NCBI GenBank assembly: GCA_046760225.1 | Contig: JBHIDR010000003.1 | Span: forward strand, 1-46,537 | Length of the DNA: 46,537 nucleotides | Origin: Candidatus Aenigmatarchaeota archaeon | Lineage (GTDB): Archaea; Aenigmatarchaeota; Aenigmatarchaeia; Aenigmatarchaeales; JACQIB01 | Reading direction: 5' to 3' | Shown: one piece after another, positions 14,486-45,875 of the stretch | Layout: each line of letters opens with the position of its first letter | Position numbering within the stretch: position 1 is the first letter of the stretch | The notes under the pieces: generated by a model | What the model was told of the DNA's origin: nothing | The model's input: only the letters and a program-made list of their open reading frames with translations | The model's database searches: none | Program-made: the position numbers and the translations under genes

Positions 14486-16229
14486 ATGGCAATTAGATCA
14501 CCTATCGTGGCAACTCTTGGACACTCAATCTGATTGAGCCAAAAATGTTGACCACGGTAAAACAACTCTATTAGATAAAATTAGAGGTACTGCTATCGTA
14601 GCTAAAGAAGCAGGTGGTATAACTCAAAGTGTAGGGGCCACGTTTATACCTGCAGATACAATCAAAAAAATATGTGGTGAACTTCTAGAAAAAATGAAAA
14701 TAAAGATAGATATACCTAGCTTATTGCTAATCGATACGCCTGGGCATGAAGCATTCACATCAATCCGAAAGCGTGGCTCAAGTATTGCAGATTTGGCTAT
14801 ACTTGTTATTGACATAAATGAGGGCTTCAGGCCACAGACAGATGAAAGCCTTGAATTTCTCAAGGAGTTCAAGACACCTTTCCTTGTAGCTGCAACAAAA
14901 ATAGACAGGACGCCTGGCTGGTTCCCTTCTCCAGGAGCATGCTTTTTTGAAAGCATTGAAAAGCAGCCTGAGCATGTTAAGGAGGGGGTTGACAAGGCCA
15001 TCTACACGCTTGTTGGCCAGCTGAGCGAAAGGGGGTTTGATGCTGAAAGGTATGACAGGGTAACTGACTTCACAAAGCAGATAGCAATCATACCATGTTC
15101 TGGAATCACAGGAGAGGGCATACCTGAGGTTCTGATGATGCTTACAGGACTTGCACAGAACTTCTTGAAGGACAAGCTCGAGATCACTGCTGGAAGAGGC
15201 AGGGGCTCTATTCTTGAGATAAAGGAAGCAAGGGGGCTGGGGCTGACTGCAGATATCATTCTTTATGATGGTGAGATAAGGAGGGGTGACTGGATTGTGA
15301 TAGGCGGTATCGAGCCCCTGGCACTGAAGATCAAGGTGCTGCTCAAGCCAAAGCCCCTGAGGGAGATAAGGGTTGAAAAGGAATTTGAACAAGTGGAAAG
15401 TGTGGGTGCTGCTGCAGGTGTAAAGATAGTTGCACCTGGTCTTGAGAAAGCAATAGCAGGTTCACCTATAATTGCTGTAAGAAAGGAAGAAGAGGTAGAG
15501 AAAGTAAAAAAAGAGCTGAAGGAAGAGCTATGCGCTGAATTTGGGGTCTGTGGTGGAGAAGGAGTGCTGCTTAAGGCAGACACACTTGGAAGCGTGGAAG
15601 CGCTCATACATATGCTCAAGCAGAGGAACATAAGCGTCAGGAAAGCTGATGTTGGCCCGCTGAGCAAGAAAGATGTAATTGAGATGGAAACAGTGGCTGA
15701 CAAGTACAAGAGGATAATCTTTCTTTTCAATGTCCCCTTAGGTGCTGATGTTGAACAAGAGGCCAGAAGCAGAGGCATAAAGGTACTAAAGAGCGATGTG
15801 ATATACAAGCTCTTTGAAGAATATGATGAATGGATAGCAGAGCAAAAGGAAAGGGAAAAGCAGGAAAAGCTGTCCAGAATAACAATGCCAGGAAAGATAG
15901 AGCTTCTCAGGGGATTTGTGTTCAGGCAGTCGAATCCAGCAATAGTTGGTGTGGAGGTGCTGGACGGTGTTATAAAATCAGGTGTGCAGCTGCAGAAGAA
16001 GGACGGTACAAAGGTAGGAACAATAAAACAAATACAGGTAGAGAACGTTACTGTGGAAAAAGCAGAAAAGGGGCAGAGGGTGGCTGTTTCAATAGAAGGC
16101 CCCACTGTTGGCAGGCAGATAAGGGAAGGTGATGTGCTGACAACTGTGATAACAAGGGGGGACTTGAAGGTTCTAGAGGAATATGGCCTGCCTGAAGCTG
16201 GGCTGGCAAGGGAAATACTTGGAAAATGA
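14486..16229 (+). CDS. infB: Translation initiation factor aIF5B/IF2; join(14486..14522,14545..16229), 573 aa
   Basis: [26 protein letters not shown] restored on removing 22 nt; EAGGITQ, IDTPGHEAF, TKID. Confidence 0.95.
14523..14544 (+). other. 22-nt BHB-type mRNA intron in infB
   Basis: TTGG AC^A CTCAAT CTG ATTGAG CCAA AA^A: 4-bp central helix TTGG/CCAA, two 3-nt bulges, 6-bp inner stem; in-frame TGA 14531-14533. Confidence 0.9.
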
Positions 16230-16262
16230 AAACAATATAAATCGGTTTTATCTATAATATTT

Positions 16263-17954
16263 ATGCGAAAACTGCTCATATTGACTGTAATACTCGTGCT
16301 TACAGTTTCTGCGACACTGGTATTTGCGCAGAACGAAACAACTACTGATACAGTAGGGGACGCAGTTAATCCAGGTGAGGATACAACGCCTCCAAATGAA
16401 ACGTCAGGCCAAGAGACCCCAGCAGAACCACCTGCAGAGGAAGCGCCCCCTGCAGAGGAGCCTGCACCGCCTGAAGAAGGGCCGTACATACCTGAGGGGT
16501 GCTATGGGGAGACAGACGAGTACGGCAACATACGAGTTATTTGTGAGGAATATGAAGAACCTGCTTGCATGCCTGTACCAGAAGACGCAATAGAAGATTG
16601 TAAGAGAAGTGGCGGGGAACCTGACTTTTTCCGTGATCATAGGGGCTGCGAAGTGATGCATTGCCGTTTTCATGAAGAGGGTGGTCCTTCGTTCATACAG
16701 CCAATTGAGCCTGGAATGTGCCCAACATCTGATGAGACCCACCTGATATCCAAGAAATGCTACGAGAACGGCATGAGGTCCATAGAGAGGAGGGCACCGG
16801 ACGGCTGCATAGTTGTTGAGTGCGTTCAAAGGGAATTCGAGCGTCCAGAATGTCCCTCCCATGAGGAATTAGAGGAAGCAAAGAGAGGATGCTTGAGCGA
16901 TGGTGGTGAGATAGTACCGTTCTTTGATGAGCATGGATGTGATGTTGTTGACTGCATCTTCCCTGGCGAAGAGCCAAGAGAGTGCAAACCTGTGCCAAAA
17001 GAGGCATTTGATGAGTGCCACAGAGACGGAGGTGAATTAATAGTCAAGGAGGATGAGAGAGGCTGTCCTTATTATGTAAGATGCCTAAGAAGAGGGGACG
17101 AAAGGGACATAGAATATGAAAGGATAAGGGATGTCCCTGATTCTGCAAAGCTCCTGTCGCTTGCACTGAAGCTGGAATCAATAAAGATAGAATTTGACAA
17201 GCTGTCGCAAAAGACAGGCGATATTGCTGATTACTATGCCTCCACAGGGGATGAGACCGAGGAGCAAAGGTTCAGAAGAGTATCTGGAATGTTCGCTGGA
17301 GCAAAGACAAGGATTGATGAGATAAAGATGAAGCTGAGAAACAGGCTGGAAGGAATAGCAATAGATGACCTTATGGAAATAAGGCATGACATAAGATACA
17401 TTAAGGACGTTTATATGAAGGACATACTGTACCTTATGCTGACGAGCAATGTCTCTGAGTTTGTTGGGCCGGCTGAGACAGAAGAGGAGATGTTCAGAAG
17501 GGGCCTTGAAGGAGAAGAGCTGGAAGGATGCGGAAGGGACGGTGGCTGCTTTGATGCCGCGCTAAGGTTCTGCAAGCCCACAAAGTTCTTCCCACCGCCA
17601 GAACCAGGCGATGAAGGACCTCCAGGCGAGATTGTTATTGAGATAGTTGGCCTGGAAGGTGAAAACTGCATAATAAAGGGCTCCATGGAAATAGAGAAGG
17701 CAGGAGTGACAATGGACATGACCTGCAAGTATCCGAACTATGCAATGGGCATGAGGGGTCCTGAAGACCTTCTGCCCCATTGCGAGGGGCCGTTCGCAGA
17801 CATGGCTAGGCAGCACATGGAAGAGGAGAAACAGAGGAGGGAGCTGTATGGACCAGAGTCAATATACGAACCAAGATATGAAGAGGAATACCGCTCAAGA
17901 TATATAGACGAGGAACCAATCTTTGAAGAGGATATTTACAAAGAATATAAGTGA
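16263..17954 (+). CDS. Secreted acidic Cys-rich repeat protein with central coiled-coil
   Basis: Signal peptide MRKLLILTVILVLTVSATLVFA, Pro/Glu linker, four 4-Cys repeats. Confidence 0.8.
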   Translation: MRKLLILTVILVLTVSATLVFAQNETTTDTVGDAVNPGEDTTPPNETSGQETPAEPPAEEAPPAEEPAPPEEGPYIPEGCYGETDEYGNIRVICEEYEEPACMPVPEDAIEDCKRSGGEPDFFRDHRGCEVMHCRFHEEGGPSFIQPIEPGMCPTSDETHLISKKCYENGMRSIERRAPDGCIVVECVQREFERPECPSHEELEEAKRGCLSDGGEIVPFFDEHGCDVVDCIFPGEEPRECKPVPKEAFDECHRDGGELIVKEDERGCPYYVRCLRRGDERDIEYERIRDVPDSAKLLSLALKLESIKIEFDKLSQKTGDIADYYASTGDETEEQRFRRVSGMFAGAKTRIDEIKMKLRNRLEGIAIDDLMEIRHDIRYIKDVYMKDILYLMLTSNVSEFVGPAETEEEMFRRGLEGEELEGCGRDGGCFDAALRFCKPTKFFPPPEPGDEGPPGEIVIEIVGLEGENCIIKGSMEIEKAGVTMDMTCKYPNYAMGMRGPEDLLPHCEGPFADMARQHMEEEKQRRELYGPESIYEPRYEEEYRSRYIDEEPIFEEDIYKEYK

Positions 17955-17958
17955 TTGC

Positions 17959-18135
17959 ATGAAGAAAATAGTTGTTTTGCTTTTGGTTCTGGCCTTTGCG
18001 GTCTTTGTCAGCGGATGCATCAACCAGACCGCCATAAAGTCCCAGGAGGAAGCGTCCCAGGCTGTGCAGGATGTCAGCGAAGACATAGAAAAAGTTGGCT
18101 CGAGCCTTGAGGACGTTGAATCTGGTCTTGGTTGA
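17959..18135 (+). CDS. Small putative lipoprotein
   Basis: MKKIVVLLLVLAFAVFVSG-C lipobox-like signal. Confidence 0.7.
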   Translation: MKKIVVLLLVLAFAVFVSGCINQTAIKSQEEASQAVQDVSEDIEKVGSSLEDVESGLG

Positions 18136-44786: not shown

Positions 44787-44919
44787 AATATAATTCTGTA
44801 AATTCTTTTTATAAAGATTCTCTTTATAAAGAATCTGGTGCGGGAGGAGAGAGTTTCGCTTCCACCTTCGTGCACCGAAGGCGGTGCTTCGAACTCTCGA
44901 AGGGACTAACCCACAAGGC

Positions 44920-45768
44920 ATCTGAAAACTTAGATTTTATGAATGTCCTAAGCAACTTATCTAAAATATCCATCTTTCTGGAACCTACCCAATTACCTTT
45001 AACTACAATAGTCTCATCTGAAAAGCCTATAATCTTCTTGAATTTTCTTATATACTCTTCTTTATGTATAGCTATTTCATGTCTATGTGTTCTAAGTATA
45101 CAATCTACTCCAAGATCTCTATGCATTTTGTATATGTCTAGCAATACTTCATCATTGTAGCAAACTGCAACTAAGCTCCTACTCCCTTTATTTAAAAGCA
45201 CAGATCCTTCATCGTCCCAAAATGCTCTTAAAAATGCAATCTTATTTTGCTTGCTTCCTTTCAAAATTTCTCGAGGCACTGTTGTTGATGCTTTTGGATC
45301 TGATGTTGTATAAGCTGGCGTGTAACTTAAAAGGTCCTCTATTATTAGTTTCGAACGGAAAGTTGCAGTAATACAGTTCCACTTATCGACATATATGTAA
45401 GGTTTACTTAGACCATAGACCTTTTTGAAATCCCCTGTAAACTGTCGTATAAGACCTTTAGATTTATTTCCATAGCTTATTCTATATCTTTTAGGCATTA
45501 CATTTCCGTCAAACAAGCAATGGGCTATAATCCTTGTTTTCTCTATACTTAGACCTTTCTGAATCACTGGCCTTTCCTTTATACAAGTTCCTTTTAAATA
45601 CCTTTTAGCTGTATTTAATGAAATGTTTGTTTTTTCTGCAATCTCTTGCATTGTATGTTTTTTATTTCTAAGTCTAAACATTTCCTTTACTTTTTTCTTT
45701 GGCAAAGGTTTTGCGTATTTCCTTGCAAATGCAATTTGATTTTTCTTCATTGCTGTCATTTTCTCCAT
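44920..45768 (-). CDS. Intron-encoded HTH + double-motif LAGLIDADG endonuclease (283 aa from circular intron; 314 aa to 44824 on precursor)
   Basis: TMQEIAEKTNISLNTAKRYL HTH, IIAHCLFDG and FLRAFWDDEG motifs. Confidence 0.9.
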
Positions 45769-45786
45769 TTTTCACACCTAAGTTTA
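44920..45786 (-). mobile_element. 867-nt BHB tRNA intron encoding a LAGLIDADG endonuclease
   Basis: Strict BHB at 37/38; AT-rich interior filled by one ORF. Confidence 0.9.
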
Positions 45787-45875
45787 CCTCAACCTTGCAC
45801 CGTTGACCTGGCTTGGCGACTCCCGCATACAAACAAATATAATATGACAGTTTAAATAACTTATAGGGTGATGTA

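Follow-up and report, generated by a model that had tools for sequence, protein, structure and literature searches.

How might an archaeon express conserved genes whose reading frames stop inside a highly conserved motif and resume some twenty to thirty nucleotides (nt) downstream? The question is raised by contig JBHIDR010000003.1 (C3), a stretch of 46,537 nt that was analysed over its whole length and is referred to as the window; it comes from a metagenome assembly of an Aenigmatarchaeota-like (DPANN) archaeon (genome G000; 851 kb in 83 contigs, 83% complete). Within the window infB, the aIF2-gamma gene and uppS each carry a short insert, as does the 5S rRNA gene, and all four tRNA genes (Tyr, Asp, Lys and Leu) are interrupted, as an earlier note on this DNA had stated. 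That note counted eleven inserts folding as bulge-helix-bulge (BHB) motifs. Ten were found at the coordinates given below, with lengths of 22-867 nt, while the eleventh, a second intron in tRNA-Tyr, lacks support. The inserts are very probably archaeal BHB (EndA-type) introns, on which the known pathway of splicing endonuclease EndA and RNA ligase RtcB would act across a wider substrate set, and G000 probably splices its mRNAs far more widely than the sole published archaeal case. That the RNAs are cut and ligated, and the spliced mRNAs translated, is what we infer from the sequence. Throughout, the same-genus genome G001 serves as the reference for intron-free homologues, and other G numbers denote related genomes.

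Inserts in three protein-coding genes

The infB gene (aIF5B) is 74% identical to that of the closest named relative, a Candidatus Aenigmatarchaeota metagenome-assembled genome. Three-frame translation places its first exon, together with the first base of a His codon, at 14486..14522 on the forward strand, where it aligns to the N-terminus of the G001 protein. The frame then halts and picks up in another frame 22 nt further on. Taking out the mini-intron at 14523..14544 restores GHVDHGKT in frame with exon 2 (14545..16229), whose open reading frame (ORF; 14694-16229) contains the Pfam domains GTP_EFTU (starting at profile position 69), IF-2 and GTP_EFTU_D4. The insert and its flanks read TTGG[AC/A]CTCAAT..ATTGAG CCAA[AA/A], with bulges in brackets and the predicted cut given by a slash; all four pairs of the central helix form, the inner helix has 6 base pairs (bp) and the outer helix none.

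The aIF2-gamma gene, also on the forward strand, is interrupted at the corresponding residues. Exon 1 (MTKKIDPRLIPEVNIGTVG plus the C of the His codon; 19423..19480) has an unbroken counterpart in G001. A TGA follows directly after ...NIGTVGH, and VDHGK picks up 31 nt later, beyond the mini-intron at 19481..19511 (TTGG[AC/A]..CTAA[AA/A]; central helix four of four pairs, inner helix 10 bp, outer helix 1). Exon 2 (19512..22522) matches the Pfam families Intein_splicing, LAGLIDADG_3, GTP_EFTU and eIF2_C; it contains a LAGLIDADG intein at about 19529-21403, placed after VDHGK, which G000 alone carries among 39 genomes.

The third gene, uppS, encodes a cis-prenyltransferase on the reverse strand (41256..41986; Pfam Prenyltransf, profile positions 25-219, on ORF 41256-41846). 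A stop occurs after HLAIIPDG and (N)RRYARKH picks up 23 nt on, such that excision of the mini-intron at 41925-41903 gives DGNRRYA. Its motif, CCTG ACGG[TA/T]TTAGT..ACTAA CCGG[AG/A]CAGG, has three of four central pairs, an outer helix of 4 and an inner helix of 5.

All three inserts are hairpins, the base of which forms, together with exon bases, a 4-bp helix between two 3-nt bulges. A cut after the second bulge base yields GH/VDHGK in frame for both infB and aIF2-gamma, and in G001 the three genes are uninterrupted with exactly these restored sequences. The earlier note had expected gene callers to truncate such genes, and this is what is seen: the annotated ORFs lack just those N-terminal Pfam profile positions that the small exons supply. 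The tRNA genes are missed likewise, with 0 tRNAs found by ARAGORN in default mode on the raw window.

The start of uppS is unusual in its own right. At 41986 the gene reads ATC where the aligned G001 gene has its ATG start (ITDDV versus MTDDV), and there is no in-frame ATG, GTG or TTG within 50 open codons upstream. A free-standing LAGLIDADG homing-endonuclease ORF on the same strand (41971..42945; Pfam LAGLIDADG_3, E = 2.5e-15) overlaps the uppS start, has its stop codon 13 nt downstream of the ATC and ends 46 nt upstream of the mini-intron. Translation may thus begin at a rare start codon or be coupled to the endonuclease ORF. We also considered an upstream uppS exon (MRNVAT...) joined across the LAGLIDADG gene, and rejected it: the BHB at that place is merely a 4-bp palindrome, and the G001 N-terminus is collinear with the frame directly upstream of HLAIIPDG.

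The same motif in 5S rRNA and tRNA genes

Rfam at gathering scores returned only a weak tRNA in the window, and relaxed thresholds revealed a 5S rRNA. The 5S gene occupies 159 nt of DNA (26396..26554, forward strand; RF00001, 48.9 bits), with a 45-nt block in loop C left unaligned. Here a 43-nt intron at 26440..26482 folds as TCCG[AA/A]CATCCTTCAG..CTGGAGGGTG AGGA[AA/C]ACGG (central helix three of four pairs, outer helix 4, inner helix 10). After excision the 5S rRNA is 116 nt long with loop C as CCGAA/CACGG, a layout equal to that of the intron-free 116-nt 5S rRNAs of G001 and G004.

Three of the four tRNA genes follow suit. tRNA-Asp(GUC) (26831..26938, forward) carries a 32-nt intron in the D arm at position 13/14 (26844-26875; TAGT[AT/G]..GCTA[AA/A]). 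In tRNA-Lys(UUU) (28107..28277, forward) the BHB scan and the spliced product place two introns, one of 40 nt at position 37/38 (28145-28184; CTTT[TA/T]..AAAG[AA/A]) and one of 54 nt in the T loop at 59/60 (28207-28260; TTCA[AA/A]..TGGA[AA/T]). The same two approaches give two introns in tRNA-Leu(GAG) on the reverse strand (44836..45826). The larger, 867 nt at position 37/38 (45786-44920; TTGA[GG/T]..TCAG[AT/G]), forms the strictest BHB of the set, with 7 bp in its outer and 10 bp in its inner helix; the smaller, 35 nt, lies at 59/60 (44887-44853; TTCG[AA/G]..CGAA[AC/T]). In both 59/60 introns the T stem takes the role of the anticodon stem. When the sequences were spliced by script, ARAGORN recognised a normal tRNA-Asp, a tRNA-Lys(ttt) of 77 nt and a tRNA-Leu(gag) of 89 nt.

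Two of these tRNA introns have peculiarities of their own. The large tRNA-Leu intron holds a LAGLIDADG ORF (44824..45768, reverse; Pfam LAGLIDADG_3 and HTH_7) that runs for exactly 283 codons up to the last base of the intron, so that the linear excised form contains no stop codon. If the intron were circularised, its first three bases (TAA) would supply a stop right at the junction; in unspliced DNA the ORF runs 31 codons more, past the 3' splice site and into the tRNA exons. Within the tRNA-Asp intron, ten bases at 26847-26856 (TTGGTGTGGC) are perfectly complementary to the 3' end and trailer of the gene at 26936-26945 (GCCACACCAA). Also inside the intron is a degenerate 5'-exon copy that Rfam took for an alternative acceptor strand in its alignment.

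With introns allowed, ARAGORN found only 21 tRNA genes in the whole G000 assembly, several of the intron calls being doubtful. Many further tRNA genes may therefore carry interruptions of kinds that lie beyond the model used by ARAGORN.

Controls for chance, DNA support and copy number

To gauge chance, each site was fixed from homology and its BHB score compared with those of 200,000 length-matched random sites in G000. No random site reached the score of the aIF2-gamma, 5S or tRNA-Leu 37/38 insert. For the others the counts were 29 (uppS), 45 (infB), 52 (tRNA-Asp), 61 and 74 (tRNA-Lys 37/38 and 59/60, respectively) and 62 (tRNA-Leu 59/60). Defining a BHB by two 3-nt bulges, a 4-bp helix and at least one flanking helix, nine of the window inserts fold accordingly: the central helix is complete in seven and has three of four pairs in uppS and 5S, and at least one flanking helix is 4-10 bp long. 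In tRNA-Tyr the same fold occurs only in a register that yields the wrong product. When the exons are joined at cuts behind the second base of each bulge, the conserved sequence is restored in nine of the ten window inserts, as well as in the four inserts in rtcB (two), EF-2 and cbf5 described below; the earlier claim that it does so throughout fails for tRNA-Tyr, whose product carries GUG and is called His. The description of the motifs as strict or relaxed proved accurate, given an outer helix of 0-1 bp in infB, aIF2-gamma and Asp, and every computational test run agrees with what would be a single EndA/RtcB-type intron system acting on mRNA, 5S rRNA and tRNA.

DNA reads without the insertions, or intact second copies of the genes, had been named in advance as evidence that would speak against splicing, and neither was found in the contigs and the assembly compared. 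Contigs from four metagenome runs of hydrothermal vents (X1-X4) were compared over 20 kb of the window (14400-34399, with uppS and tRNA-Leu outside this range). At infB, aIF2-gamma, Tyr, 5S, Asp and Lys they run through the inserts at 99-100% identity without an indel there, and the sole indel listed in the comparison lies at 29197 in run X3. The assembly contains one copy each of infB, aIF2-gamma, uppS and 5S, with no second copy of any of them in its 83%-complete sequence.

Two other searches for inserts were uninformative. A genome-wide scan without homology, for BHB motifs whose removal restores an open frame, gave 19,062 candidates, as compared to 18,617-19,615 when the 3' site was shifted by 1-2 bases, and a stricter single-hairpin filter still left 487. 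Local alignment was also used to look for N- or C-terminal segments of G001 ORFs that are missing here, and non-coding frames swamped the signal.

tRNA-Tyr

The body of the tRNA-Tyr gene (24967..25736, forward; ARAGORN with introns allowed and BHB scan) is clear, with C1-G72, A73 and an encoded CCA. The assembly contains no other tRNA-Tyr, and elsewhere in the genome there is a tRNA-His gene free of introns. Removal of a 693-nt insert at 25003-25695 gives CU-GUA-AA, such that a single insert with the cut at 35/36 suffices for the GUA anticodon; at this junction there is no BHB, and 29,805 of the 200,000 random sites score as well. The insert holds a LAGLIDADG homing-endonuclease ORF (25016..25684, forward; Pfam LAGLIDADG_3, E = 7e-13). 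The only good BHB lies at 37/38 (CTGT[GC/G]...TCGG[AA/A]), with a score matched by 17 of 200,000 random sites, and would lead to GUG with C37, which ARAGORN calls His. A reading with two introns and a 2-nt AG micro-exon gives the proper GUA/G37 loop; the BHB scan found no motif at the sites of its first intron.

In X2, X3 and X4, contigs of another, more abundant organism share the flanks of this tRNA-Tyr, with 25 other bases in place of 25003-25680. The tRNA-Tyr of that organism has a short intron for which the canonical cut gives a GUA-G37 loop.

Inserts beyond the window and in related genomes

The earlier note had foreseen further interrupted genes elsewhere in the genome. To find them, all G001 ORFs were compared with G000 by tblastn and adjacent matches separated by extra DNA were sought, a comparison blind to introns common to both genomes. 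Two additional interrupted genes emerged. EF-2 contains 32 nt at C46:687-718, between SH and IHHGK (TCGC[AT/A]...GCGA[AA/A]), followed by an intein, an arrangement as in aIF2-gamma. In cbf5, 38 nt at C20:7685-7722 (CCTT[AG/A]...AAGG[AA/A]) split ...TTA G/AT CCC after the first base of the catalytic Asp codon, which is the published crenarchaeal site (PMC2738675). A third gene outside the window, rtcB on contig C35, is interrupted by 30 nt, in frame, at 1544-1573 (PDGHEGY/GFPIGG; AGGG[AT/A]...CCTT[AA/A], inner helix 9 bp) and by 32 nt at 1646-1677 (GGIG/YDINCG; TAGG[AT/T]...CCTA[AA/A], inner helix 7 bp). This brings the total for G000 to seven inserts in six protein genes.

Inserts at the same sites recur in some relatives. 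The DG/NRR site of uppS is interrupted in three of the 30 genes read, namely those of G000, G004 (13 nt) and G026 (21 nt), the last in frame but with stop codons and with a strict ATGG/CCAT motif; of the 29 relatives, 26 have a continuous gene and one gene is cut by a contig end. The Asp codon of cbf5 is interrupted in 3 of 39 genomes, G000, G027 (15 nt) and G024 (30 nt). A 5S match was obtained in 35 genomes from the order, and in seven of these the 5S gene measures 147-183 nt. In G003, G005 and G017 a BHB gives a 116-nt product, the G003 site lying 5 nt upstream of that in G000, and the motif finder left three other relatives without resolution. For infB, the open frames of all near-full-length copies in relatives fit an uninterrupted gene, the P-loops themselves having been read in G001 only. 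With the infB and aIF2-gamma inserts seen in G000 and in none of the relatives searched, the lineage to which the earlier note ascribed routine mRNA splicing narrows to this species together with scattered recurrences in uppS, cbf5 and 5S.

In G017 the 5S gene (locus L100) apparently combines the loop-C intron site of G003 with that of G000, each of which occurs alone in those genomes; a script located the first intron (46 nt), and the second (20 nt) was read by eye only. An obligate link between inteins and mini-introns was considered and dropped, as the SHIHHGK of G008 is unbroken although its EF-2 contains an intein. The occurrence of the aIF2-gamma intein in G000 alone means that there are no replicates on which to examine such a link.

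EndA and RtcB

Both enzymes of the proposed pathway are encoded in the genome. Contig C2 carries two EndA-like genes at a distance of 0.5 kb, both of which have the N- and C-terminal domains (PF01974; 85 and 66 bits). The first paralogue has its best alignment with chain 3iey_A, the enzyme of Nanoarchaeum equitans (E = 4.4e-35), retains the Tyr and His, and has a 7-residue insertion before the His, as in the Nanoarchaeum enzyme. The second has Lys at the His position and is thus probably a structural subunit. Based on these alignments, EndA is probably a heteromer of a catalytic and a non-catalytic paralogue, similar to that of Nanoarchaeum. Hetero-oligomeric and loop-bearing EndAs are tied to relaxed motifs, and the EndA inserts of DPANN archaea to more heavily disrupted tRNA genes, in the literature (PMC5829648). 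The ligase gene rtcB is present (PF01139, 497 bits), yet itself interrupted twice; tblastn of the G000 RtcB against G001 gave no match.

Discussion

The proposed pathway can be summarised as follows. Genes would be transcribed with the inserts still in place, upon which each insert and a few flanking exon bases would form a 4-bp helix between two 3-nt bulges, its inner side usually being the hairpin of the insert. EndA would cleave after the second base in each bulge, and RtcB would ligate the exons and circularise the intron. The predicted substrates comprise tRNAs at positions 13/14, 37/38 and 59/60, the 5S rRNA in loop C, and mRNAs at highly conserved motifs: the P-loops of infB, aIF2-gamma and EF-2, the DG/NRR of uppS, the catalytic Asp of cbf5 and two motifs of RtcB.

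The mRNA inserts might instead be kept in the RNA and skipped by the ribosome through programmed bypassing or frameshifting, as known from phage T4 gene 60 and the 'byp' hairpins of yeast mitochondria. They are indeed short hairpins in coding sequence, and in aIF2-gamma a TGA stop stands directly after the His codon, ahead of the insert. This is very unlikely all the same, as the same motif and cut rule are found in the untranslated 5S rRNA and four tRNAs, where bypassing cannot act. The take-off and landing codons moreover do not match (CAC then ..AAT in infB, CAC then ..AAC in aIF2-gamma), and the cbf5 site is one for which spliced cDNAs are reported from several crenarchaea (PMC2738675). 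Somewhat less improbable, if still unlikely, is that the protein genes are decaying pseudogenes or defective population alleles, the hairpins being insertions like miniature inverted-repeat transposable elements that are never removed. DPANN archaea have reduced genomes and depend on hosts, G000 was the only genome with the infB and aIF2-gamma inserts, uppS has no standard start codon, and a genome that is 83% complete leaves room for a second copy. Against this, the seven inserts lie in six essential single-copy genes in which the BHB cut restores frame and invariant motif to the base, the frames outside the inserts are intact across 500-1000 codons, and other genomes carry BHB-folding inserts of different length at the uppS, cbf5 and 5S sites.

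That the inserts are artefacts of sequencing or assembly would be conceivable for a window taken from an 83-contig metagenome assembly. The chance of this is negligible, since independent contigs from the four runs align ungapped across the inserts they span (for example X2 records 9 and 12, and X4 records 25, 26, 28 and 29). A last alternative concerns only the 693-nt insert of tRNA-Tyr, which could be a group I intron as opposed to a BHB intron. At the sole junction giving GUA the last base is U in the 5' exon and G in the insert, as at group I boundaries, a BHB is absent there, and archaeal rRNA genes do have group I introns with LAGLIDADG genes (PMC6125680). The Rfam covariance model (RF00028) nevertheless gave no match up to E = 10, neither in 24950-25750 (801 nt searched alone) nor in the whole window, and we rejected this candidate. 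The ORF takes up 669 of the 693 nt and therefore leaves no space for a ribozyme core, and all 39 published archaeal group I introns sit in rRNA genes (PMC6125680). A group I intron in this place is accordingly hardly to be expected.

Several observations do weigh against EndA-type splicing of these inserts. The case is built from DNA sequence alone, splicing itself being what we infer from it. The outer helix is missing or 1 bp long in infB, aIF2-gamma, Asp and EF-2, and most of the mRNA motifs are without one; such relaxed motifs require an enzyme of broad specificity. The catalytic EndA paralogue reads RAN where the Methanocaldococcus jannaschii and N. equitans enzymes have RKK, and should one of these lysines be catalytic, the EndA active site differs here. 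In tRNA-Tyr the sole good BHB would lead to the wrong anticodon. The infB and aIF2-gamma inserts occur in G000 and in none of the relatives searched, and the ATC in place of ATG means that uppS may have a further defect. Finally, the four DNA runs all come from one study, and X1 is perhaps the source of the window.

The large tRNA introns hold LAGLIDADG homing endonucleases, and hence some members of the family, at least, are mobile as DNA. Going further, the mini-introns could be a selfish, sequence-targeted family that lives off EndA and RtcB by entering the most conserved DNA words of essential genes (the P-loop of three paralogous GTPases, the DG/NRR of uppS, the catalytic Asp of cbf5 and loop C of 5S), and that partly travels with LAGLIDADG genes and inteins or shields against them by splitting their target sites. 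As rtcB itself needs two splices, splicing capacity would then be self-limiting, amounting to an autoregulatory loop of rtcB. We regard this proposal as speculative and on balance doubtful.

The closest known parallel is the crenarchaeal cbf5 pre-mRNA intron, reportedly also the subject of work by Watanabe in 2002 and Yoshinari in 2006. It is 16-44 nt long and has a relaxed BHB in which the cut falls between bulge bases two and three; according to the 2009 paper by Yokobori, splicing has been confirmed for no gene but cbf5 (PMC2738675). The inserts described here resemble it in being short (13-38 nt including those of relatives), in their relaxed BHB and in splitting an invariant catalytic motif. 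They differ in that the host is a DPANN archaeon and that at least five further genes are involved (infB, aIF2-gamma, EF-2, uppS and rtcB), including the ligase of the pathway itself. In full-text literature to 2025, with subscription journals and supplements outside the coverage, cbf5 was the sole archaeal mRNA host found; within the same coverage, no paper on a 5S rRNA intron was found.

Non-canonical and multiple archaeal tRNA introns are said to have been described by Marck and Grosjean in 2003 and in papers by Sugahara and Fujishima. The tRNA introns of G000 are like those of Thermoproteales, Nanoarchaeota and ARMAN (PMC5829648) in using sites beyond 37/38, in occurring several to a tRNA, in their relaxed motifs and in going with a hetero-oligomeric or loop-bearing EndA; unlike in those groups, two tRNA introns contain full homing-endonuclease genes and the motif also appears in 5S rRNA and mRNAs. 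BHB introns with LAGLIDADG genes are reported for archaeal 16S and 23S rRNA (Kjems and Garrett 1988; Jay and Inskeep 2015). As in those cases, an EndA-type intron sits in an rRNA gene and would probably be freed as a circle, whereas the host here is a 120-nt 5S rRNA and the introns, of 20-67 nt, contain no ORF. The neighbourhood of uppS also recalls a phage system: a free-standing LAGLIDADG gene ends 46 nt from a mini-intron that splits highly conserved DNA, much as in the collaborative homing of a phage intron and a neighbouring free-standing homing endonuclease that Bonocora and Shub reportedly described in 2009. The G008 EF-2 intein, with no adjoining mini-intron, sets the present case apart in that the link is not obligate.

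If splicing is real, archaeal mRNA splicing would no longer be a one-gene curiosity of cbf5: it would be routine in some DPANN archaea for core translation factors, an envelope lipid-carrier enzyme and an RNA ligase, and 5S would be added to 16S and 23S on the list of rRNAs that host introns. Genes missed or truncated in standard calls feed false statements about missing genes in reduced genomes. The same codon positions are hit in distant lineages, which offers a testable handle on how BHB introns move.

Inteins and rRNA-like stretches

G000 is rich in inteins and LAGLIDADG genes. In addition to those mentioned above, in-frame insertions of 1251-1665 nt relative to G001, consistent with inteins, occur on contigs C1, C11, C14, C15 and C18 and in the window, where the insertion (35416-36822) lies in RpoA''. 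Two highly conserved stretches of apparently rRNA-coding DNA contain extra DNA as compared to G001, of about 41, 754 and 86 nt in C1:43150-46500 and of about 31-70, 825 and 995 nt in C8:16790-20200. These segments are likely to be rRNA introns.

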